Below, one piece after another: positions 15,750 to 51,503 of a stretch of DNA of 64,000 bases. Origin of the DNA: a virus. The position numbers were made by a program, and so were the translations under genes. The DNA lies in the IMG/VR virus record IMGVR_UViG_3300042945_001784, positions 1 through 64,000 of that record; one strand, written 5' to 3'. The notes beneath the pieces are model-generated. The model saw only the letters and a program-made list of their open reading frames with translations. It was not told the origin of the DNA and ran no database searches. Within the stretch, counting starts at the first letter, position 1. Each line of letters starts with the position of its first letter.

Positions 15750-16222
15750 TTGTGGCTTATCAGTATAATCCTTTCACTGGTAACTTAGATATTGTTTCAA
15801 CCGGAGGCGGTGGAGGAGGTAGCGTCACGATTGCTGCTTCTGCTGCTGATGTGCTTGATGCAAGCTCTAACATCATCGGTGCTGACGATGCAGGTTCTGA
15901 CAAGATTGTCTTTTGGGATGATAGTGCCAGCAAACTAACTTATCTTACGGTAAGCACAGGTTTAACTATCAGTGGCACTACCTTAACTTCTGAAGTAACA
16001 TCTGCTGCTGTTTCAATTGCAGATATTATTTCTGTTAGCTCAGGTACTATCAGTGCTGACGATGCAGGCTCTGATAAAATAGTGTTTTGGGATGATAGTG
16101 ATAGCAAGCTGACATACTTAACTGTTGGCTCTGGTCTATCAATTTCTGGCACCACAATCACAGCTACTGGTGGCGGTGGTAGCGTTACTGTTGACCCTGT
16201 TATTGCTGGAATGATCTTCTAA
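15746..16222 (+). CDS. Tail fibre segment with internal tandem repeat
   Basis: YNPFTGNLD start; two copies of ADDAGSDKIVFWDDS.SKLTYLTV..GL.ISGTT. Confidence 0.7.
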   Translation: MIVAYQYNPFTGNLDIVSTGGGGGGSVTIAASAADVLDASSNIIGADDAGSDKIVFWDDSASKLTYLTVSTGLTISGTTLTSEVTSAAVSIADIISVSSGTISADDAGSDKIVFWDDSDSKLTYLTVGSGLSISGTTITATGGGGSVTVDPVIAGMIF

Positions 16223-16581
16223 TGGCTGCACCTAATTTAAAATCTCCTACAACAATCACAGGTAAGACAGCTCGCTATGCTGTTACAACCACCTTAGCTG
16301 CAGCACTAAGTAACGCTGCTGCAAGCAATAAAGTATTAAAGATCAATAGTATTTTTTGCGCCAACGTAGATGGTGTAAATGCTGCTGATATTAGTCTTTC
16401 TATTTTTGATGGTACTACAGATCGTTATATTGCTTTTACAATTGCTGTAGCACCTGATAGTACACAAGTTCTCAGCACAAAAGAAACTTATTTCTATCTT
16501 GAAGAAGGAGATAGTCTTCGTGCACAAGCTAGTGCAAATAGTGATTTAGTTCTTGTTATCGGTTACGAGGATATTAGCTGA
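16222..16581 (+). CDS. Tail fibre adaptor-like protein
   Basis: Similar to 57278..57619 (...YLEEGDSLRAQAS vs ...IVEASDTLRARCN). Confidence 0.65.
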   Translation: MAAPNLKSPTTITGKTARYAVTTTLAAALSNAAASNKVLKINSIFCANVDGVNAADISLSIFDGTTDRYIAFTIAVAPDSTQVLSTKETYFYLEEGDSLRAQASANSDLVLVIGYEDIS

Positions 16582-18233
16582 TGAGACTCGGAGTTATTGG
16601 CGGCACAGACAGCAAACGAGCATCAGGAGTTTATCAAGCTGATGACATAGTAGCGTTGCAAGATGCCAAAAAGTACGTAAGCCGCTTTGGTTACGACAAT
16701 GTGTTCAACGCGCTGGCAAGTTCTGGTATTGAAAACGGTTTCGATGTCAGTCGTGATGGCCGGTATGTCTATGTATCCGTAACTGGAACTAGAACAACAG
16801 CCATCATATTTCAATACGAATGTTCGACGCCTTGGGATCTTTCAACCATCACCTATTCAGGTAAAAGCCTGGTAGTTGGTGATTGGGACCTTAACTGTAA
16901 TGGACTTGCAATTAGCAACGATGGCACCCGTCTGTGGTTTACTGGACGGGCTGGTGCTACCGTCTGGTCGTGTACGTTATCTACGCCTTATGACCTTGCT
17001 ACGGCCACGGTTGATGTAAAGAGGGTTTACATTGGCACGCAAGATCTATCGTCAGAGGGTTTCGTCTTTGGTGACAGTGGCACCAAGATGTACGTTTTAG
17101 GTAACACCAGTAGGATAGTGTATCAATACACACTGAGCACTGCGTGGGATGTCAGCACAGCTACTTATTCCACTAAGAGCTTTAGTGTAAACACTCAAGA
17201 TACCAACGCACAGGGCATTTTCTTCAAGAGTGATGGCTTGACTTTTTACATGGTCGGAGCAACTACCGACACGGTGTATCAATACACGTTAAGTACCGCT
17301 TGGGACATTGCTACTGCAAGTTATGCCAGTAAAAGCAAAGCAGTTGGCACAGAAGAAATAAACCCTAGTGATGTGTTCTTTAAGCCTGACGGCCTCAAGA
17401 TGTACGTCATAGGATCAACAGGTGACGATGTTAATGAGTATGACCTAAGCACGGCATGGGATGTCAGCACCGCTACATTCTTGCGTGTCTCTGCCACTGT
17501 AGGAGAGACTGCACCGAGTGGCTTGTGGTTCAAGGACGACGGCACCAAGATGTACGTTATAGGTCAAGCCAATGATGCCGTGCGTGAGTTCACGCTGTCT
17601 ACTGCCTGGAACGTGTCAACAATTTCTTTTTCTAAGTCACTCTCGATTGGTTTTGAGACTGCTCCAACGGGCGTCACGTTCAAAGACGATGGCACTGAGA
17701 TTTATGTCCTAGGTCGCACCAATGACTGTGTTTATGAAATTCAGTTAGGTACAGCTTGGGATACTGGCACCGCAAAAGGTTTTACTTATGTTGGCGGTAC
17801 TGAAACTACACCAAGAGGTCTTCATATTAACAGCGACGGCACACTTTTGTTTTTAACTGGCGGCAGTAATAGCGTCCGCAAATACACGTTATCAACCGCC
17901 TATGAATTAGGCACGGCAACGTTATCCCAAAGTTTTTCAGTTACTGGAAGTTATGGCATTCATGTAACTGCAGATGGATTGCGGATTTATGTGACACTAG
18001 ATAGCAATGCAGCAAACCCTGCGGGCGGCAGGCAAGTTCGACAAATTACGCTTACATCTCCGAACGATTTAACGACAGCAACACTTAGTACAGTTGAGTT
18101 AATTCCTTTGCTTGGATTAACTGGAACAGCAAGCACTCCATGGGGCGTCCGCGTTTCTCCTGACGGCACTCGCATGTTTGTGTTATCTGACAGCACTCAA
18201 GGTATGTACCAATTCTCGTTGAGGTTTGCATGA
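16581..18233 (+). CDS. Beta-propeller repeat protein, putative receptor-binding
   Basis: About ten repeats of roughly 49 aa: FK.DGTKMYV.G...D.VYQY.LSTAWDVSTA. Confidence 0.8.
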   Translation: MRLGVIGGTDSKRASGVYQADDIVALQDAKKYVSRFGYDNVFNALASSGIENGFDVSRDGRYVYVSVTGTRTTAIIFQYECSTPWDLSTITYSGKSLVVGDWDLNCNGLAISNDGTRLWFTGRAGATVWSCTLSTPYDLATATVDVKRVYIGTQDLSSEGFVFGDSGTKMYVLGNTSRIVYQYTLSTAWDVSTATYSTKSFSVNTQDTNAQGIFFKSDGLTFYMVGATTDTVYQYTLSTAWDIATASYASKSKAVGTEEINPSDVFFKPDGLKMYVIGSTGDDVNEYDLSTAWDVSTATFLRVSATVGETAPSGLWFKDDGTKMYVIGQANDAVREFTLSTAWNVSTISFSKSLSIGFETAPTGVTFKDDGTEIYVLGRTNDCVYEIQLGTAWDTGTAKGFTYVGGTETTPRGLHINSDGTLLFLTGGSNSVRKYTLSTAYELGTATLSQSFSVTGSYGIHVTADGLRIYVTLDSNAANPAGGRQVRQITLTSPNDLTTATLSTVELIPLLGLTGTASTPWGVRVSPDGTRMFVLSDSTQGMYQFSLRFA

Positions 18234-18481
18234 TGCTCTACTCTTACCATACCTGTTGGCCCCAGGTTTTACCTTTTCGTATCCGTTTAAGCGATGGTTC
18301 TACACGTACAGATCCATCTACATTTACAGCAGAAGAAATTGCAGATGCTGGATACACTGGTCCGTACGTTGAACCTGCTTACAACCCTGAAACAGAAGTT
18401 TTAAACTGGGATCCTTATACTCTTACTTTTTATATCACTCCGAAACCACCGGAACCACCTGTTGATCCCATAAGTGAGTGA
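18230..18481 (+). CDS. Tail fibre-associated small protein
   Basis: LPFRIRLSDGSTRTDPSTFTAEEIADAGY...PAYNPETEVLNW, chaperone-like position after the fibre gene. Confidence 0.6.
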   Translation: MMLYSYHTCWPQVLPFRIRLSDGSTRTDPSTFTAEEIADAGYTGPYVEPAYNPETEVLNWDPYTLTFYITPKPPEPPVDPISE

Positions 18482-18646
18482 CAAGATTCAGGCTACAGGA
18501 GCTTTTGATCCTTTAGTAGATGAATACTCATTCTCTATCTGTAGTGGTTCTCTTGTCGTTACGTTTGATTTCTTAAAAAAGGATGACATTGAACATTTAG
18601 TTTCGTGTCTTTCTTGTATGCTGGTTGACGACGAATCAGCCAACCG

Positions 18647-19300
18647 ATGAGCATTGTTGAACTTGTTTGGGCAACGCCAGATGCCGAAGCACTGATCACA
18701 AAGATGGCTCGCGTTTCAGCGCCAGCCAATGAGAACAACATGGAGACTGCTCCTAAGTTGCTCCATTATCTAATTAAACATGCTCACTGGTCGCCATTTG
18801 AAATGGCAAACATGTGCGTAGAGATTCACACAACGCGTGCAATCTCAGCGCAGATCATCCGTCACCGTTCGTTTTCCTTCCAGGAATTCAGTCAACGCTA
18901 CGCAGACATCAACCTGTTAGGTTCAACTTATGTGCCGCACCTGCGTCGCCAGGATACAAAGAACAGACAGAATTCTGTTGATGATCTTGATGCGGAGATG
19001 ACCGGTCAGTATTACCGGCGCATCAGTACTCTTTTTGAAGAAGCTGAACATCTGTATAAAGAGATGGTGAGTTCAGGTGTCGCAAAAGAATGTGCACGTA
19101 ACATTCTTCCGCTTGCTTCTCCAACCCGTATCTATATGAATGGGTCCTTGCGTTCATGGATTACTTACATTGCTCTCCGTGAAAAGCACGGTACACAAAT
19201 GGAACACATGCAGATTGCAAAGGACGCTAAGAAAATTTTCTGTGGTCAGTTTCCTACGATTGCAGAAGCTCTTGGCGGCACTGAAGAATGGACAATCTAA
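18647..19300 (+). CDS. thyX: FAD-dependent thymidylate synthase
   Basis: HWSPFE, QIIRHRSFSFQEFSQRY, ECARNILP motifs. Confidence 0.97.
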   Translation: MSIVELVWATPDAEALITKMARVSAPANENNMETAPKLLHYLIKHAHWSPFEMANMCVEIHTTRAISAQIIRHRSFSFQEFSQRYADINLLGSTYVPHLRRQDTKNRQNSVDDLDAEMTGQYYRRISTLFEEAEHLYKEMVSSGVAKECARNILPLASPTRIYMNGSLRSWITYIALREKHGTQMEHMQIAKDAKKIFCGQFPTIAEALGGTEEWTI

Positions 19301-19389
19301 AGAATAAAGTATAAACAATTAGTAACACTTAATTTCCTGGGCATCCTTTGGAGTAAGTCCCAGGCTTTGTTGTATTTGCACACACCACG

Positions 19390-20337
19390 ATGGACAACAA
19401 ACTACCTAAAGTTCCTGAAAAAGCGCTTGAAGCTTTGAAGGATGGCATTCAATCTGTTCTTGATTCTAAAGATTGGACTGGTTTTCTTTCTGCTATACGG
19501 TGCATACATGACTATAGTTTCAACAATAAGTTGTTGATCATGATGGCGCAGCACAAGCGTGGATGGGCGTTTAGTCCATTTGTTGCTGGTGCCAGGAAGT
19601 GGAACGATAAGTTCAATCGGCAACTTAAGAAAGGTGAGTTCACCAATCCCATCTGGATCCTTGCTCCAGTACTCATTAAGAAGACAGATGAGAATGGACA
19701 GGTCCTCTGTCGTGCGGATGGAACGCCAGAGCAAGTGCCGATTCGCTTTCGTGGGGTGAAGGTCTATGACCATCATCAAACAGAGGGAGATCCAATCCCT
19801 GAACCAGACACCACTGGCATGATGGCACAGCTAGAGGGAGACATTTCCTCGCATGTCATGGATGGTATGGTTGCTGTCGCAAAGCGCCGTAGCGTTGAGG
19901 TGCAGCGTTGTTCTGCAGCTGATCTTGGTTCTGCTTTAGGCCGCTGCTGGTTTGCCAATCAGGGCCGCGCCAGCAAGATTGAGATCAGCTCTGAAATCAA
20001 TGAGATCACTGCTGTCAGTGTCATGGCTCATGAGCTAGGTCACGCCATCCTTCACAACCGTGATGAGTACCAGGAACATGACTCTTCCTCCATCAAAGAA
20101 CTGGAAGCTGAGTCAGTTGCTTATCTGGTTTGTTCTCATTACGGCGTGGATCTTGGTCGTCGCAGCTTTCAGTACATTGTTCATCACAACACTGCATCTG
20201 ATGATGTCGTTGCAGATCTCTTGAAGTCCGGTGATCGGATTTTCCGTGCCTACGAGGAAATCATTAAGACCACTGATGACTACCTCACGACAGAGCCAGC
20301 TCCAGTGGCTCGACAATTGTTTGTTAGTACTTTATAA
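19390..20337 (+). CDS. ArdC-like ssDNA-binding domain plus zincin metallopeptidase
   Basis: YSFNN.LLI...VAGARKW...RQLKKGE...VYDHHQTEG; HELGH...ELEAESVAY. Confidence 0.85.
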   Translation: MDNKLPKVPEKALEALKDGIQSVLDSKDWTGFLSAIRCIHDYSFNNKLLIMMAQHKRGWAFSPFVAGARKWNDKFNRQLKKGEFTNPIWILAPVLIKKTDENGQVLCRADGTPEQVPIRFRGVKVYDHHQTEGDPIPEPDTTGMMAQLEGDISSHVMDGMVAVAKRRSVEVQRCSAADLGSALGRCWFANQGRASKIEISSEINEITAVSVMAHELGHAILHNRDEYQEHDSSSIKELEAESVAYLVCSHYGVDLGRRSFQYIVHHNTASDDVVADLLKSGDRIFRAYEEIIKTTDDYLTTEPAPVARQLFVSTL

Positions 20338-20344
20338 TTTCTTT

Positions 20345-20630
20345 GGTTCTGATCAGACCCTCGTGGCCGCGAGAACGTCCGGTTACTTTCAGGCGTAACT
20401 GGATACCTGATATCACAGAGTGGAAGCTGTGATGTCAACGATGAAGCAGAAAGAGGAATGGGGGCCGACCCTCATTTAAAACCCGTGAACGGGATCCTCT
20501 TTTGTTAAAAATTTTTGCAGGGGCGCAACCCCACCGATAGCTACACGGCAGGGCTGTTCACTTACCAGCAGAAGGAAACCACAAAAACTTCTGCTCCCCA
20601 GGGCCTGACGTGGTTCTTCTACGGCCCCTT
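20345..20630 (+). ncRNA. Candidate large structured ncRNA
   Basis: TATAAT at 20333; no ORF; at least 7 helices, a long-range closing stem and two pseudoknot pairings. Confidence 0.7.
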
Positions 20631-20638
20631 GGTATAAT
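20630..20638 (+). promoter_or_regulatory. Extended -10 sigma70 promoter
   Basis: TGGTATAAT upstream of the 20648 ORF. Confidence 0.6.
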
Positions 20639-20647
20639 AGGTTCTAT

Positions 20648-22294
20648 GTGCTTTACAAAAACCTTACCATGGCCGTATTATGCAAACCCAAGATCATAGG
20701 AACAGTAGCCTGTGATTCCGGTTCAATCGCTCTTGTTGACCCGTCTCATCTTGAAGTATCGAACGCAGATACTGTTCAGCTTCCTCATTGGAATCTGTTT
20801 ACTTCTGTTGATACTGAAATGGGGGATGGAGAATTTGTTGTTTACGCTCAACGTGACAACCGTGGTTGTTTGCGTCGAGTCATCATTGAAATTGAATGAT
20901 TTCTACTTACGTCTTTCTAGTCTGGGTTCTTATTAATATCATCTTTCTATTTAACTTTACGCTTCCGGTTGGTTACCTTGTTATTGTCAACCTGTCCTTT
21001 ATAGTAGCCAGTATCCTTTCGGACACTGAACCTTCTAATCGGATATGAGCAACCTGCTTGACCCCAGGCGCGAGCCCAATCGCTGGCTTGCTGCTATGTT
21101 TGATCACCTTCTCCAGGTTGGCGATGCTGACTCTCTTGATTCTCTTCGTTCTGGTTATTATCAACTTTGTAATGTTGTTGAGCCTGGTTTGATTGACAGT
21201 CTATTTCAACCTTGGATTGAAGCATATCTTCAAGGACTCCAGGAAACGGATGAAACAGAAAACATTCAAAGTATCCAGCGTCCACCGCAGGGGCTAGAGG
21301 ATCTGCCGGAACCACTCCAATAATTTCCCCTAACTCATACAACGGTTCAGAAGCGTACGGTGGTCTGTGCCACCAAAACTTTAAGGCTTCCCAATCTACT
21401 AACCAGTCCGGGTGGTATGCCAACCACCTGGACCATGCTTTAAATTGTTTTTCTGGATGCCTTGAAGTGCAATCTAAGTACAGACAGTCACCAGGTTCTA
21501 TTTGCCAGCGTGCTAACAACAGGTGTTTAAAGCCTCGATTGATTGATTTGAAACCACCCTTGCCTGTTAGGTGGCTACGCATGTTGCTAGCACGTTTGTT
21601 TTTTTTATTTCGATACCAATCGTTAAGTTGTCGTTTTGATTTACTAATAGCATAAGCTACACGCCACACCCAATGATTACCGGTAAAGCAAAACTCTGGT
21701 GTTAAAAAGAGTTTGCAATACTGATCATTGATTTTAAACGTAGTAGTGCTACGCTTTCGGGATACTCTATAGGTCATGGCGTGGACGATCTTATCATTGC
21801 TATCCAACAAGATCCCGAATTATGGGAGATTGTTGAGAAGCTGAAAAGTCCTGATGAAGATCTAGAAGATTTCCTGCTCAGCATAGCTCATATGCTATCC
21901 ATTGAGTTTCAGGAGCTTCATAAAACAGATCTTTCCGATAAACTTGCTTCTTTATTCGGTGGTCTTCCTAGTAAGTCACTGATCATGGCACCGATGCTCC
22001 TGCACATTGCACTGGACATCTTTTTGATGCGTGCCATTCCTCAACAAGAGGAGGGGTGATATGCAACACGGTTATGTTCTTTGTAACTATGATCTGTCTC
22101 AGGTGTTGTGTCTGACGCCAGAGAAAGATGGCGTGGTCCTGCAAGATGTGAGCAGTACAAAAGTACTCAATAAAGCGATATGCTTGTCAGACCTGACTGA
22201 AGCTAAGAATGTTTTACAAATGCTTCAGAATAAAGAGATGACAGGCGATCTTGAGATTGTTAATGTGGCACGACTGTACAAGAAATTCTTCTAA
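20648..22294 (+). other. Small hypothetical CDS (20648-20899, 21045-21323, 21781-22059, about 22061-22294)
   Basis: ORF track. Confidence 0.6.
21094..21777 (-). CDS. Hypothetical protein
   Basis: Trp-rich ORF; 3' end overlaps 21045..21323. Confidence 0.6.
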   Translation of the reverse strand: MTYRVSRKRSTTTFKINDQYCKLFLTPEFCFTGNHWVWRVAYAISKSKRQLNDWYRNKKNKRASNMRSHLTGKGGFKSINRGFKHLLLARWQIEPGDCLYLDCTSRHPEKQFKAWSRWLAYHPDWLVDWEALKFWWHRPPYASEPLYELGEIIGVVPADPLAPAVDAGYFECFLFHPFPGVLEDMLQSKVEIDCQSNQAQQHYKVDNNQNEENQESQHRQPGEGDQT

Positions 22295-22306
22295 GGTGAT
22301 CTCAGT

Positions 22307-24154
22307 ATGAGACTTGTTCTAGACCTTGAGAGTAATGGATTGTTGCCAGTGATGGACACGATCCATTGTATTGTTCTGCGTGATCTAGATACAGGTAACA
22401 TCATTAGCTGTGCTGATCAACCTGGTTATCACAGCCTTGAGATGGCCCTTGATTTTATAAGAGAAGCCACGTTAATTGTTGGGCACAACGTTATCAAGTT
22501 TGATATACCTGCCCTTAAAAAAATATATCCAAGCTTACAACTTAAACCTAATGTTGAATATTACGATACGTTAGTTGTTAGTAGGGTTATGTGGCCCGAG
22601 TTAGAGCCTGTTGATGCTGCTAAGTTTTCACATATCCCACGTAAATACTTTGGTCGCCACAGCTTAGCAGCCTGGGGTGAGCGCCTTGGCGTAAGCAAGA
22701 TTAACTTCAAAGAAGAAAGTAAAAAAGATAACGATGAAGTAGAAGATGTGTGGGAAAGATGGACTCCTACAATGCAAACATATTGTGAAGGTGACGTAGA
22801 AGTATCGACTAGACTATATGAATATCTTTCCTGCCAACAGCTTGACCCCAGGTGTCAGCAACTAGAGCATGAGTTTGCTCTGGTCATGATGCAGCAGGAA
22901 ACATTTGGGTTTCCCTTCAATGAAAAGGCAGCCTATGCGTTGGTCAACACGCTCAAAGCTCGACGCTCTGAGCTTGAGGATGAACTGCAAACAACCTTCC
23001 CGCCAATCGAGGAAGAACGCTGGTCGGAAAAGACTGGCAAACAACTTAAAACAGAGATTACAGTATTCAATCCTGCCTCCAGGACACAGATCTCGCAGCG
23101 GCTACGAGCTAAGTACCCTGAGATTACATTTGAATCCACGAAAAAGGGTAAGCCCAAGGTGGATGATGACGTTCTGGAATCTCTTGGTCAGAAATATCCA
23201 GAAGCTAAGTTGTTGGCTGAGTACCAACTCTTTAACAAAAGGCTTGGTCAAATCGCAGAGGGGAAGGAAGCGTGGTTAAACCATTGCAGGATCTATAACG
23301 ATGGCCGTATTCATGGCGAAGTTATTACTAACACTTGCATTAGCGGCAGATGTAGCCACAAACGGCCCAACATGGCCCAAGTCCCCAGTGTTGGTCACGC
23401 TTTTGGAGCTGAGTGCAGGGCTCTGTTTTATGCTCCTGATGGTTGGTTGTTGGTTGGTGCTGATGCTTCTGGACTCGAACTCAGGGCGCTAGGCTCCTGG
23501 CTTGCTTACTTTGATGATGGTGAGTACGCCAGGCTAGTCAGCACTGAGGGTTTTGATATCCACACATACAATGCCAAACTCTTTGGGATCTACGATGGTG
23601 TAGGCGAGATCAGCAAGGCTACCCGTGATCTATCGAAGCGGCTTATTTATTGCATCTTGTATGGTGGCGGTGCAAAAAAGACTGGATCCATTATTTCTCC
23701 TGACGAAGGTGAAAATACCCAGTACCAGCAGGGTAAGAAAACCATTGATACGTTCTATCGGAATCTACCTGCTATCAAGAAGCTTAAAGATCTCATCGAA
23801 GAACGCATTACGCAACGCGGTTATCTTACTGGTATTGACGGCAGACGGTTACAGATTCGCTCTAAACATTCAGCCCTCAACCAACTCCTCCAATCGACGG
23901 GAGCGATTGCGGTAAAGAAAGCAACAACAATTCTTTATGATGATTTAACTAATGAAGGATTAGTCTTTGCAAAGGACTGGGGATTTGTTGCACACGTACA
24001 CGATGAATATCAGGCTTTAGTTAAGCCTGAGTACGTTGATCTTTATACCAAGCTAGCTATTGATTCGTTCCGTAAATCTGGTGAGTACTTTCAGTTGAAG
24101 TGTCCACTTACTGGTGAAGCCAGGACAGGTAAGAACTGGCAAGAAACTCACTGA
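22307..24154 (+). CDS. polA: Family A DNA polymerase with 3'-5' exonuclease (T7-like, Tyr762 type)
   Basis: DLESNG ExoI; GHNVIKFD ExoII; DASGLELR motif A; RDLSKRLIYCILYG motif B; HVHDE motif C. Confidence 0.97.
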   Translation: MRLVLDLESNGLLPVMDTIHCIVLRDLDTGNIISCADQPGYHSLEMALDFIREATLIVGHNVIKFDIPALKKIYPSLQLKPNVEYYDTLVVSRVMWPELEPVDAAKFSHIPRKYFGRHSLAAWGERLGVSKINFKEESKKDNDEVEDVWERWTPTMQTYCEGDVEVSTRLYEYLSCQQLDPRCQQLEHEFALVMMQQETFGFPFNEKAAYALVNTLKARRSELEDELQTTFPPIEEERWSEKTGKQLKTEITVFNPASRTQISQRLRAKYPEITFESTKKGKPKVDDDVLESLGQKYPEAKLLAEYQLFNKRLGQIAEGKEAWLNHCRIYNDGRIHGEVITNTCISGRCSHKRPNMAQVPSVGHAFGAECRALFYAPDGWLLVGADASGLELRALGSWLAYFDDGEYARLVSTEGFDIHTYNAKLFGIYDGVGEISKATRDLSKRLIYCILYGGGAKKTGSIISPDEGENTQYQQGKKTIDTFYRNLPAIKKLKDLIEERITQRGYLTGIDGRRLQIRSKHSALNQLLQSTGAIAVKKATTILYDDLTNEGLVFAKDWGFVAHVHDEYQALVKPEYVDLYTKLAIDSFRKSGEYFQLKCPLTGEARTGKNWQETH

Positions 24155-25288
24155 TTACTTAGATTCAACTTGGAAAGGACCACCATATCCTGTTCCTTTC
24201 AAGCGATGTTTAGATTCATCGTATCCATATTGACGCAAGCTTTGCTCTAGCCCACTGTAATCACTTCCTCTAAAGCGATCTACAACAGGATCAATCACAT
24301 AATCTGTGACAACATCTGCAAGTTTTTCTGCGCCGCGACCAGCTAATTCTCCAATAACTCCTTCAGTAAAACCACGCGTTGCTGGTGGTCCTGCATAAGT
24401 TGCAAATGCGCCACCAAGTAAACGACGGCCTTTAGGTAAACCTAGCTCACCTGCTAATCTAAAAGCGTTACGAGTTGCCAATGCTTCTTCTGCAAGCGTG
24501 TGTCTTATGCCAGGAGAAGTTACATTGCTTAAAAGTCCTTCAAGTCCAGCTTGCCATAAACTTCTGTTTTCATCTTGAGAATTTCTGCCTGCACTTAAAC
24601 CACTGATAGTTCCTGGTTCAATATACTGTTTTCCATATCGTAAGTTGCGTTCTTTTTGCGCAAGACCTGGATCAGCAAAGTTAAGAGCGTGTCCAAACTC
24701 ATGCAAAGTAACCGGTGCTGAATATCTAGCATAATTTTTTAGTTGTGGTTTTTCATCCATTAATTTATTGAAACGTTCATCTAACTCAGGTTTGCTGCCC
24801 CAAGGTAGGCTTTGAAGATCCTGCATAATAGGTGATATTTTTTCATCGAATTTTCCAAGATCTTGCATGTATTTTGCACGTGCTTCATCAGACAAAACTC
24901 CTTGAACATTGACACGATTTTCATTATCGAAAAAAGCATCAGGATGGTCTATAAAACCGGTAAAGTTTACAGGTGTTCTTAGTTTTGGATTAAGAAACTC
25001 TTGTACTTTTTCAATGGTTGATAAAGGAACTTGTGTTGCAGGATTTGCTCTTAATTTATTGAGTGTTTCACTTCCTAATGAAGCTGATTGATTTAGTAAA
25101 GACCGAGCTGCGTTAACTCCTGTAACTTCTCTTGCAAAATTCTGTGCTTCTTCTACTTTTCTACGGTTTACAGACTGTCCTACATAAGGACTATCAGCTC
25201 CACCAGGGAGCAGCCCTCCCGCTAAGTTTTTATCTACGGCTCCATAAACTTTTTGAAAGCCGCCGCTTAGCCAGTTAGGAAAAGGCAT
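24155..25288 (-). CDS. Putative zincin metallopeptidase-domain protein
   Basis: TLHEFGHALN...LAEEALATRNA in a Gly-rich ORF. Confidence 0.6.
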   Translation of the reverse strand: MPFPNWLSGGFQKVYGAVDKNLAGGLLPGGADSPYVGQSVNRRKVEEAQNFAREVTGVNAARSLLNQSASLGSETLNKLRANPATQVPLSTIEKVQEFLNPKLRTPVNFTGFIDHPDAFFDNENRVNVQGVLSDEARAKYMQDLGKFDEKISPIMQDLQSLPWGSKPELDERFNKLMDEKPQLKNYARYSAPVTLHEFGHALNFADPGLAQKERNLRYGKQYIEPGTISGLSAGRNSQDENRSLWQAGLEGLLSNVTSPGIRHTLAEEALATRNAFRLAGELGLPKGRRLLGGAFATYAGPPATRGFTEGVIGELAGRGAEKLADVVTDYVIDPVVDRFRGSDYSGLEQSLRQYGYDESKHRLKGTGYGGPFQVESK

Positions 25289-25317
25289 TGTATTTTTTAA
25301 CCTACTTTAATTTTAAA

Positions 25318-25428
25318 TTACTTTTTCTTTCCGCCGTTCTTAGCTTTACGAGCATTGGCATTACCGCTATTCTGCTTAGCATTTTGCTTAGCAGTTGCAG
25401 CGGATTTTTTGTTCTTTGGTTTAGACAT
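25318..25428 (-). CDS. 36-aa Lys/Ala-rich basic peptide
   Basis: MSKPKNKKSAATAKQNAKQNSGNANARKAKNGGKKK; start overlaps the upstream stop codon. Confidence 0.55.
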   Translation of the reverse strand: MSKPKNKKSAATAKQNAKQNSGNANARKAKNGGKKK

Positions 25429-26738
25429 TAGCGGCTAATTTCCTCCCAATCTAGAGAAGCATGGATGTCTGCACCGCTAACATCAGATGCTGCAATTAAA
25501 GTCAGCTCGTAGGGTGTAGATGTAAAAGGTTCTCTTTCTAATTGGAAAGTAAAAAGAGCTTCCTTAAGAATGTCAACTGGAGTAGATCCTTGGTTAGCGC
25601 CAATGGTATAACCGCTGGCTAAGATTCGTCCAGTTCCTTGGGTAAATCCTGTACCCGTAATGTTATATTCTACTGCAGAATTAGTTCCTGCACTAACCCA
25701 CGTTCCGCCTGTTGTTGTACCACTTGCAACAACTCTCCAGTTATATGTTGCATTGTTTGTAATCCCAATCAATGAAAGAGCTGTCAAAATAACAATGGCA
25801 TCTAAACGATTAGGAGATGTTTTAAGCCGGATTGACGCCAGGGGGTAGTAGGTTCCTGCTGTTGTTAGGTCAACAGGAGTTGTAATTGGAGTACCAATTG
25901 CTTGTTGTACGCCCCTAAGTTCGTAGCCTCCTTCGGAAACAACAGAAGAACAAACTTGTTTTAATGTACTGTTACTTGCAGTTGTTCCTGTGTTTTCAAT
26001 CTCATAGCGTAAAGGTAAAGATGCTGTTGTGATATAGGTTGAAGTAATTATATTGGCGTGATGGAAAGAATGGCAGTGAATAAATACACCATTGATAACA
26101 AAACCTAAGCGAACTGTTCCTAAACCAAGCCACTCAATATCCATCCAAAAGATCTGTGCTTTTGTAATATCAAGAGTCAGTCCTGAAAGACCTTCACCAT
26201 CTAATTTATCTACGTTCCAGTTACTCTGGGCTACACGTGTTTCTGTTACGGATCCAGTGACGCTGCTTCTTTCAACAAAAGATAAGGTTGAACCATTTAA
26301 TTCAACGTAGATACCATTATCATTTCCAAAGTATCCAACACGTTGACGTAAATTTTGTTTTGCAGGATTGAATACAAAAGTATTTAATACAAGAAGACTT
26401 TTACCTGGTTGGTATGAGAAAACCTTAGTAGTTTCTCGATATACTTTTGATCCTGACGTTGTTGTTACGTTTAAATTAACTAAACCTTCGCTAGTACTGA
26501 ACGATGTTGTCCCACCACTTGCTGTATTTATTGCCCACAAACCATTATCGTTATAGCGATGGCTAGAATCAAACAAAGTTAAGGGTTGTGACATCCTTAA
26601 CCGTCCAAAAGCATCACTTGCTATTGAACTGCCTCCACCTGATGGAGCTGTTATCGCTACATTTAGTACCTGATCATCAGGATTTAGTACTTTGACAACC
26701 TCATAAAGATTGTCATCTCTTTCAATAACGGTTGCCAT
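25428..26738 (-). CDS. Virion structural protein, beta-rich
   Basis: DAFGRLRMSQPLTLFDS...YQPGKS...WLGLGTVRLG, a common phage structural pattern. Confidence 0.7.
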   Translation of the reverse strand: MATVIERDDNLYEVVKVLNPDDQVLNVAITAPSGGGSSIASDAFGRLRMSQPLTLFDSSHRYNDNGLWAINTASGGTTSFSTSEGLVNLNVTTTSGSKVYRETTKVFSYQPGKSLLVLNTFVFNPAKQNLRQRVGYFGNDNGIYVELNGSTLSFVERSSVTGSVTETRVAQSNWNVDKLDGEGLSGLTLDITKAQIFWMDIEWLGLGTVRLGFVINGVFIHCHSFHHANIITSTYITTASLPLRYEIENTGTTASNSTLKQVCSSVVSEGGYELRGVQQAIGTPITTPVDLTTAGTYYPLASIRLKTSPNRLDAIVILTALSLIGITNNATYNWRVVASGTTTGGTWVSAGTNSAVEYNITGTGFTQGTGRILASGYTIGANQGSTPVDILKEALFTFQLEREPFTSTPYELTLIAASDVSGADIHASLDWEEISR

Positions 26739-29659: not shown

Positions 29660-29686
29660 AACCGCTCCTTCGGGGGCGGTTTTTTA
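29660..29686 (+). terminator. Rho-independent terminator
   Basis: AACCGCTCC-TTCG-GGGGCGGTT-TTTT. Confidence 0.85.
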
Positions 29687-29938
29687 TTCTTCGTAATAGG
29701 TCTTGATCACATCTGCCTCCAGGTTGGCAAGCCGTGCGATTAAATTTCTAATGATGGCCTGGCGTTGTACAGATAGCTGAAGAAGTTTCAGTGCTCCTGC
29801 TCTTAAAACATCTGGATCAGTAACAGCTTCTAATTCCTTTGCAATCTTTGCTTGAAGAAACTCATCTTCTAAAGAAAGATTAAAGTCATCAGGGCTGAAC
29901 TTAAATTCAATTAATTCAAAGCCAGACATTATTGACAT
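29684..29938 (-). CDS. nblA: NblA-like phycobilisome degradation protein
   Basis: LSLEDEF...LLQLSVQRQAIIRNLI helix-loop-helix pattern. Confidence 0.55.
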   Translation of the reverse strand: MSIMSGFELIEFKFSPDDFNLSLEDEFLQAKIAKELEAVTDPDVLRAGALKLLQLSVQRQAIIRNLIARLANLEADVIKTYYEE

Positions 29939-51343: not shown

Positions 51344-51428
51344 GGGAGCGTGGCGGAATTGGTATACGCTGCGGACTTAAAATCCGTTGGTCTCGACCTT
51401 GTGGGTTCAAGTCCCACCGCTCCTACCA
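51344..51428 (+). tRNA. tRNA-Leu(TAA)
   Basis: Cloverleaf; anticodon arm GCGGA-CTTAAAA-TCCGT; long variable arm; GGTTCAAGTCC; encoded CCA. Confidence 0.95.
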
Positions 51429-51429
51429 C

Positions 51430-51503
51430 CGGGATATAGCGCAGCTTGGTAGCGCATCTGCTTTGGGAGCAGAGGGCCGCAGGTTCGAATCCTGCTATCC
51501 CGA
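51430..51503 (+). tRNA. tRNA-Pro(TGG)
   Basis: Anticodon arm TCTGC-TTTGGGA-GCAGA; GGTTCGAATCC; no encoded CCA. Confidence 0.95.

Follow-up and report, generated by a model that had tools for sequence, protein, structure and literature searches.

The window analysed here is a 64,000-nucleotide stretch of DNA from an uncultured aquatic phage, positions 1 to 64,000 of the IMG/VR record IMGVR_UViG_3300042945_001784, which is 80,807 bases long and estimated to be 94% complete. Our subject is a 332-nt gap between two of its plus-strand genes, the first encoding a 315-aa ArdC-like protein and the second a protein of 76 aa. The neighbourhood is a replication module, with ThyX upstream and a family A DNA polymerase downstream. 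A reading made from the letters alone (hereafter the sequence-only reading) had placed in this gap one large phage RNA of about 285 nt and of a family that it did not recognise. We find that this 285-base stretch is made up of two separate structured RNA genes, A on the plus strand and B on the minus strand, which face each other (Table 1). The description as non-coding, structured and phage-borne thus stands, but the description as one molecule does not. We hold this anatomy, meaning the two RNAs, their strands and their folds, with high confidence.

Table 1 The two RNAs, their parts and the flanking genes. Positions are those of the window.
Feature	Position	Strand	Remark
315-aa gene	19390-20337	+	Upstream of A; weak ArdC-N and M78 peptidase matches (Pfam, PHROG)
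Predicted promoter of A, TCGACA-17 nt-TATAAT	20310-20338	+	11 of 12 consensus positions
RNA A, about 165 nt, uncatalogued	20345-20508	+	Covariation, strand-specific G-U pairs, predicted promoter
H1 of A	20345-20359	+	
H2 of A	20360-20373	+	
H3 of A	20377-20404	+	Variable, missing in some relatives
H4 of A	20409-20436	+	Loop AGUGGAAG
Conserved single strand of A, ACGAUGAAGCA	20438-20448	+	
H5 of A, a three-way junction	Outer stem 20451-57/20495-20501; H5a 20458-20475; H5b 20482-20493	+	Followed by a U-rich tail
RNA B, about 110 nt, CyVA-1-type kissing-loop RNA	20516-20630	-	Covariation in 72 sequences
P4 hairpin of B	20600-20628	-	17-nt loop
P1 of B	20596-99 with 20520-23	-	Closing stem of the three-way junction
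P3 hairpin of B	20567-20595	-	13-nt U-rich loop
Junction strand of B, GGUAAGUGAA	20557-20566	-	10 nt, conserved
P2 hairpin of B	20526-20556	-	
Kissing contact of B	P4 loop 20610-20615 with P3 loop 20577-20582	-	Paired in 432 of 432 cells
Shared -10 region	20630-20639	both	Plus: TGgTATAAT (extended -10, 76-aa gene); minus: TATTAT (putative), 5 nt before P4
76-aa gene, phrog_5209	20669-20899	+	Divergent from B; separate from the RNAs

Folded as a whole, the 332-nt gap is more stable than its shuffles on the plus strand (z = -3.97, with 0 of 100 shuffles as good), and on the minus strand the z-score is -1.65. Thirteen related viral loci were collected via the ArdC-like protein. With nhmmer, the query splits at about 20512 into a 5' part, A (query positions 1 to about 176), and a 3' part, B (about 175-331), and the two parts lie 180-900 nt apart in several of these first relatives. 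B is kept in all 13 loci, including the distant ones, and A in a narrower set. Each RNA is also found without the other: a complete genome of 85 kb and a second, 74% complete, have A and lack B even with the search filters off, and two fragments have B and lack A. B occurs, moreover, in quite different gene contexts. Because the halves are apart in relatives and each is found alone, we conclude that these are two independent RNA genes. They are not obligate partners, and annotation has to show two RNA genes here, one per strand. The sequence-only reading had looked to homologues for covariation; covariation is present, in both modules, but the same homologues divide the stretch in two.

A first pattern for B, read off the early relatives, matched 32 viral stretches, eight of which had no hairpins by eye and were discarded (loci L015, L016, L018, L019, L030, L032, L034 and L043). 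A longer pattern gave two matches in a prokaryote collection holding one genome per species and 71 in metagenomes, and after removal of duplicates the set comprised 72 distinct sequences, all of them retrieved by one exact pattern. Across these 72 sequences, 94.4% of the cells of the B fold are paired, compared with 72.0% in shuffles (0 of 500 as high) and 41-52% in slid controls, and both sides change in 27 of 36 pairs. Judged from the aligned sequences, the complementary loops are the best-supported feature of the stretch. They had been pointed out before, as AACCAC and GTGGTT in two 3' hairpins at 20567-95 and 20601-27, and this proposal is borne out: the six loop-loop pairs are standard in every cell (429 Watson-Crick and 3 G-U), and four of the six change on both sides. 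Model R1 scores 110.1 bits and finds a single copy of B in the window, as in the whole 80.8-kb record.

The irregular pairs of B separate the two strands. On the minus strand, the helices of B (alignment A1) contain 2178 Watson-Crick, 237 G-U and 45 A-C cells, and in helix P3, where the pattern sets the register, the corresponding counts are 545, 29 and 1. Read on the plus strand, every irregular pair encountered was A-C or C-A. A plus-strand hairpin GGGG-CGCAA-CCCC had been proposed in this region; its cells are paired hardly more often than in shuffles (64.2% and 63.4%, with 126 of 500 shuffles as high) and it can be dropped; in the minus-strand fold its bases are part of P1 and P2.

Both B matches from the prokaryote collection (L047 and L048) lie on short contigs or contigs of metagenome-assembled genomes, labelled Acidimicrobiales and Mesorhizobium. 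The small-gene context of L047 is the same as that of the metagenomic loci L053, L088 and L095, and it therefore looks like phage DNA binned with a metagenome-assembled genome. In these four loci all neighbouring open reading frames (ORFs) are on the strand of B.

The A family comprises 22 sequences, 21 of them distinct, obtained with nhmmer and a pattern scan. The scan returned 29 stretches: six new true homologues, 10 on contigs already known, and 13 that looked like coding coincidences and were set aside. In alignment A4, counting H2, H4, the H5 outer stem, H5a and H5b in the 22 sequences, 93.2% of cells are paired, compared with 76.3% in shuffles (0 of 500 as high) and 37-45% in slid controls; both sides change in 24 of 33 pairs, and on the plus strand there are 41 G-U cells against 7 A-C. 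Applied to the first 16 A sequences, RNAalifold recovers H1, H4, H5a and H5b with many U-G pairs. Folded alone, A reaches a z-score of -4.25, and its minimum-energy structure is the covariation structure. Model R2 scores 157.2 bits at the A of the window, finds one copy of A per genome and picks up more distant copies in many B-bearing loci. A small peptide within A was considered and rejected, as the ATG at 20442 opens 12 codons here and only six in L005 and L006 (by eye).

Two parts of A had been recognised correctly by the sequence-only reading, namely the hairpin at 20409-36, which is H4, and the branched element at 20446-20505 with two sub-hairpins, which is H5; both are real and covary. 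Its hairpin at 20377-20404 exists as H3, with the variability given in Table 1. Its statement that G-U pairs favour the plus strand is true of the 5' two thirds of the stretch, but the 3' third favours the minus strand.

These results bear directly on the proposal of a single plus-strand RNA of about 285 nt with a long-range stem, a pseudoknot and kissing loops. The plus-strand folding score, a minimum-energy fold with long-range pairs and a 245-nt metatranscriptome contig that runs over 20370-20607 with four differences are what such an RNA would lead one to expect, and its long-range stem (20350-65 with 20544-60) does form an A-B duplex of -17.8 kcal/mol in the window (z = -2.1). However, that duplex reaches z <= -2 in only 3 of 30 loci, its sides lying up to 900 nt apart, and in 30 of the 39 loci having both RNAs the halves are separated by 228-900 nt with genes between them. 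The pseudoknot, which pairs TCAGG with CCTGA, has its CCTGA partner in 2 of the 22 A sequences, and the A-C or C-A mismatches of the B half turn into G-U only on the minus strand. A single RNA is thus highly improbable. By eye, base pairing of the conserved loops of A with those of B, or of A with the leader of the 76-aa gene, gave nothing convincing.

Each of the two RNAs lies behind a conserved -10 box. The TATAAT reported at 20333 is present (20333-20338) as part of the predicted promoter of A, and the stop codon of the ArdC/M78-like gene falls within it. Based on a script, 25 of the 31 distinct homologues of A have TAnnnT exactly 6 nt ahead of GGTTCTG, their conserved start; the remaining six have, by eye, TGnTAnnnT before a different first hairpin that is also palindromic. 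Of the 72 B sequences, 67 have a TAnnnT on the strand of B at 3-9 nt ahead of P4, spelled in at least 10 ways; over 1000 shuffles the number averages 17 and never exceeds 30. TATTAT is the putative -10 of RNA B in the window. This box mirrors, on the opposite strand, the TATAAT belonging to the 76-aa gene, so that the two divergent start sites would be about 18 bp apart. The motif GGTTCT follows both predicted plus-strand promoters (20333-20351 and 20630-20646); it starts A and also stands after the TATAAT of the 76-aa gene.

At the 3' end of A, the H5 stem is followed by UUUUGUU. U-runs are also present in L011 and L026 and absent in L006-type relatives, and a consensus scan called no plus-strand terminator at this end. 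The stem and its U-rich tail suggest that most A transcripts probably end near 20505.

By its sequence features, B is a rearranged relative of CyVA-1 (RF02965), which has the Rfam type 'Gene; sRNA'. Weinberg et al. 2017 (PMC5737381) give CyVA-1 an average length of 78 nt and place it among intergenic regions of at least 600 bp. The Rfam gathering cut-off for this family is 41.4 bits. Under that cut-off, the CyVA-1 model matches B in the window at 15.3 bits (20601-20627, minus strand, model positions 40-66 only), L040 at 26.2 bits (positions 33-69) and L110 at 33.1 bits (full model). At the gathering threshold there were no CyVA-1 or other Rfam matches in 15 related loci. Every CyVA-1 match is oriented along the minus strand of B. 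A bona fide CyVA-1 is found at L143:1422-1498 (43.0 bits) on a 66-kb IMG/VR viral contig, and the catalogued form is therefore also phage-borne. Model R1 matches the same site at 29.9 bits, with P3 and CUGGU aligned to hairpin 1 of CyVA-1. A scan of viral contigs with the CyVA-1 consensus loop returned 33 stretches, all of which, apart from L143, were by eye coding coincidences in GC-rich phages and were discarded.

What B and CyVA-1 have in common is a pair of hairpins: one with the 17-nt loop GAAG(G/A)AGA-N5-GUCA and one whose U-rich loop is UUUyU-N5-UUCC, with CUGGU after it. The N5 runs of the two hairpins are complementary in the Rfam consensus and in L143. In L143, hairpin 1 has the loop UUUCU-N5-UUCC, then CUGGU, and hairpin 2 the loop GAAGGAGA-N5-GUCA. 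In B, the 17-nt purine-rich loop is that of P4, GUAGAAGA-ACCAC-GUCA, in which AGAAGA is near-invariant across the 72 sequences, and the U-rich loop that pairs with it is that of P3, UUUUU-GUGGU-UUC. The differences are in the loop letters, with GAAGAAGA in B in place of GAAGGAGA, and in the topology. In CyVA-1 an outer stem encloses both hairpins and the U-loop hairpin comes first, whereas B has its GAAG hairpin outside P1, on the 5' side, with P2 and the conserved junction strand, GGUAAsUGA, in its place. B would work like the kissing module of CyVA-1, with the hairpin order swapped and one hairpin added; of four features compared, it shares the two loops and lacks the topology and a score of at least 41.4 bits.

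At the gathering thresholds of Rfam nothing is found in the gap, and the whole window gives only two tRNAs. A permissive scan of 20200-20800 yielded only weak rows in the gap, on the minus strand, including CyVA-1 and Cyano-2; the Cyano-2, Atu_At1, CPEB3 and snoRNA rows were dropped as chance-level. For A, Rfam 15 gave no plus-strand match in that scan and none at the gathering threshold, and no family matched the A homologues L157 and L164. That the sequence-only reading recognised no family agrees with the curated thresholds, but the 3' RNA can be recognised, as a relative of CyVA-1.

With its compact three-way junction, tertiary loop-loop contact and highly conserved junction strand, B could also be taken for a small self-cleaving ribozyme, which, like CyVA-1-type modules in general, would process phage transcripts. 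Phage ribozymes often fill gaps between co-directional genes, and in some phages B fills the whole of such a gap. No Rfam ribozyme family reaches its curated threshold, however; the permissive scan gave only the chance-level CPEB3 row, at 12.4 bits, and by eye the junction strands differ from the hammerhead core. B would also start at a promoter in most loci and leave nothing upstream to cut off. Self-cleavage therefore has very little probability in our judgement.

The arrangement of the two RNAs is constant and what lies between them is not. A and B are convergent in 39 of 39 loci having both, with gaps of 0-900 nt that fall into three classes. The slot is empty, with a gap of 0-12 nt, in nine loci, the window included. 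In 17 loci the gap is 228-248 nt and holds a DUF4278 ORF on the strand of B, and in 13 it is 539-900 nt and holds larger cargo. In this last class an Asp/Asn beta-hydroxylase (PF05118, 139-150 bits) is encoded on the strand of A in all four loci tested, and the other ORFs in these gaps match no Pfam family. Across the B set, 21 of the 72 loci have a DUF4278 ORF (Pfam, 29.4 bits) downstream of B and co-directional with it, about 65-75 nt past P1. In the complete genome G002, A lies about 60 nt ahead of a 256-aa gene.

The A/B pair thus brackets an accessory-gene slot, and each RNA would be the first element to be transcribed on its own side. One extension of this would make A and B matched boundary RNAs of the slot, each lending incoming genes a promoter and a 5' end that is folded and protected, and restricting transcription from the other; separately, aquatic phages would insert the CyVA-1-type kissing module, as a portable domain for protein binding, at the heads of transcription units. 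We consider this extension unlikely. If it were true, the CyVA-1-type module would be a new class of phage regulatory part and not a host small RNA copied by phages.

Our preferred explanation, which we regard as on balance probable, is that A and B are two autonomous small RNAs heading short convergent transcription units. A would be transcribed rightwards from TCGACA-17-TATAAT, starting near 20345, and would fold into five hairpins. B would be transcribed leftwards, probably from TATTAT, starting at the foot of P4 near 20628, and P4 would dock via a loop-loop helix of 6-8 bp onto P3 of the three-way junction. Each RNA would form the 5' domain of a short transcription unit whose slot is empty here and loaded in relatives. 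As stable small RNAs, both may bind protein or RNA through their invariant unpaired runs, the candidates being GAAGAAGA, UUUUU and GGUAAsUGA in B and AGUGGAAG and ACGAUGAAGCA in A. That both are kept without cargo and that each is found alone argues for autonomous RNAs acting in trans; the action in trans itself we put forward tentatively, as possible rather than probable.

Several observations weigh against this explanation, and some of them would fit equally well if A and B were cis-acting 5' leaders of the slot gene, serving as stabilisers or as sensors of a ligand or protein, with the empty slot a recent deletion. A gene lies within 10-75 nt after B in many loci, as with DUF4278, and directly after A in some; the hydroxylase gene begins about 10-40 nt past A in all four loci checked, and the 256-aa gene of G002 is similarly placed. 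B has no U-tract terminator, and both RNAs stand directly behind their -10 boxes, as leaders would. On the other hand, the nine of 39 loci with a gap of 0-12 nt keep both folds, and at loci such as L012 and L042 B is followed immediately by the 3' end of the ArdC-like gene, which converges on it. Unlike those of a riboswitch, the genes found downstream have no relation among themselves, comprising DUF4278, the hydroxylase, small ORFs and genes that look structural. In several lineages A ends in a stem and a U-run. Cis-acting leaders are accordingly a serious alternative, but one that we think improbable.

A second group of contrary observations concerns the folding statistics and the transcripts. 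B alone is weakly better than its shuffles (z = -2.18, 3 of 200 as good), and its minimum-energy fold is not the covariation fold, since the loop-loop helix lies outside what nested folding can represent. Because the sequences are related, the shuffle controls make them look more independent than they are. In each of eight riverine metatranscriptome runs, 5-7% of the sampled words of 16000-25999 are found, and in all four runs that were mapped, contigs extend over about 18.6-24.3 kb, including the RNA region, with 90-99% likeness; the uncovered parts, 16000-18337 and 24350-25017, carry no information. Besides the 245-nt contig, longer contigs join A, B, the 76-aa gene and beyond. These bridging contigs fit read-through and argue against clean termination. 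The data are contigs without strand, ends or level and could stem from DNA; they show presence in RNA libraries and nothing beyond it.

The palindromic character of A belongs with these points as well. H1 and H2 (20345-20373) are near-perfect DNA palindromes, including their centres, which in relatives read CTGCAG, TGATCA, TGGCCA, AGCGCT or TGCGCA. Situated at +1 to +30, they may be protein-binding (operator) sites instead of, or besides, RNA hairpins. Extended to both elements, this leads to a reading in which they act as DNA, as operators, as recombination or boundary sites, or as folded single-stranded DNA marking the slot or a replication start, with the RNA incidental. That the elements bracket a slot of variable cargo, that they lie in a replication module between ThyX and DNA polymerase A, and that folded DNA also tolerates G-T wobbles are all in keeping with it. 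Nevertheless, the loop-loop helix covaries in all 72 sequences, as is typical of tertiary folds in RNA. H4, H5, P2 and P3 are not palindromic and have strand-specific G-U pairs, unpaired runs are strictly conserved, and each element has its conserved -10 box at the right distance. The relative CyVA-1 is catalogued as an RNA and, according to a preprint, was detected among the non-coding RNAs derived from RNA-seq of halite cyanobacteria. No recombinase gene was found among the flanking genes checked. A role as DNA is therefore quite improbable. Small RNAs acting in trans remain the favoured reading, followed by cis-acting leaders, with DNA-level roles and self-cleavage less likely.

The flanking genes recur in relatives. 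Homologues of the 315-aa ArdC-N/M78-like gene lie upstream in 30 of 72 B loci, and homologues of the 76-aa gene adjoin B in 36 of 72; in the latter gene, variability at the third codon position agrees with the plus frame. By codon-position variability, the 76-, 50- and 92-aa ORFs of 20669-21323 agree with the plus strand and 21324-21810 agrees with a minus-strand gene. The minus-strand ORF at 21340-21810 matches phrog_38455 (E = 9.6e-40), and a listed minus-strand ORF of 238 aa would overlap the 92-aa gene. Two neighbouring tRNA genes are located at 51344-51503 (plus strand; 58.2 and 71.1 bits).

The INPHARED phage collection gave no match to the 332-nt stretch in distant mode or to the surrounding 5 kb in near mode. 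The DNA polymerase of the window has no relative above 44.8% identity there, and the collection holds no close phage. The label of cyanophage would follow only from the DUF4278 ORFs of relatives and from the relation of B to CyVA-1. An 84-aa ORF at 29684-29938 (minus strand), labelled nblA-like, matches no Pfam family at E <= 0.01.

The new point that emerges from the window is the A-slot-B arrangement, whereas B is a new form of a catalogued kind, CyVA-1. B adds evidence that the CyVA-1-type kissing-loop module is widespread in aquatic phages (two matches on prokaryote contigs compared with 71 in metagenomes), and its well-defined consensus, in which unpaired runs are invariant, lends itself readily to pull-down and probing. 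A is a fresh candidate RNA class with strong covariation, a clear predicted promoter and no catalogue entry. A 2023 catalogue reports more than 10,000 viral structured-RNA candidates (PMC10690425). We found no description of A or B in the literature, where the supplementary lists of PMC5737381 and PMC10690425 might hold either RNA unnamed.

Among known RNAs, Cyano-2 (RF01702) aligns two hairpins to the minus strand at 20460-20595 with 16.1 bits (E = 0.12; cut-off 40 bits). We treat this match as chance because the score is low and the match spans the boundary between A and B. B also resembles the phi29-type packaging RNA (pRNA), a phage RNA of about 120 nt that likewise combines a three-way junction with two loops kept complementary by covariation. 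The loops of pRNA pair between molecules, and the resulting ring sits on the portal of small protein-primed phages. B, in contrast, belongs to the replication and early region of a phage of 80 kb and turns up in many gene contexts unrelated to it, and the Rfam scan of B gave no pRNA match.

The arrangement itself, with A and B pointing at each other across the cargo, is a testable example of how phage accessory-gene hot spots may be organised, and its nearest counterpart is found in T4-type phages, in which conserved cassettes of a promoter and a stem-loop (PeSL) flank variable genes. In both systems, conserved structured sequences that bear promoters, predicted ones here, bracket a hot spot of accessory genes. 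PeSL has a single stem-loop, whereas A and B are long RNAs of several helices that show covariation and a tertiary contact, and they face each other.

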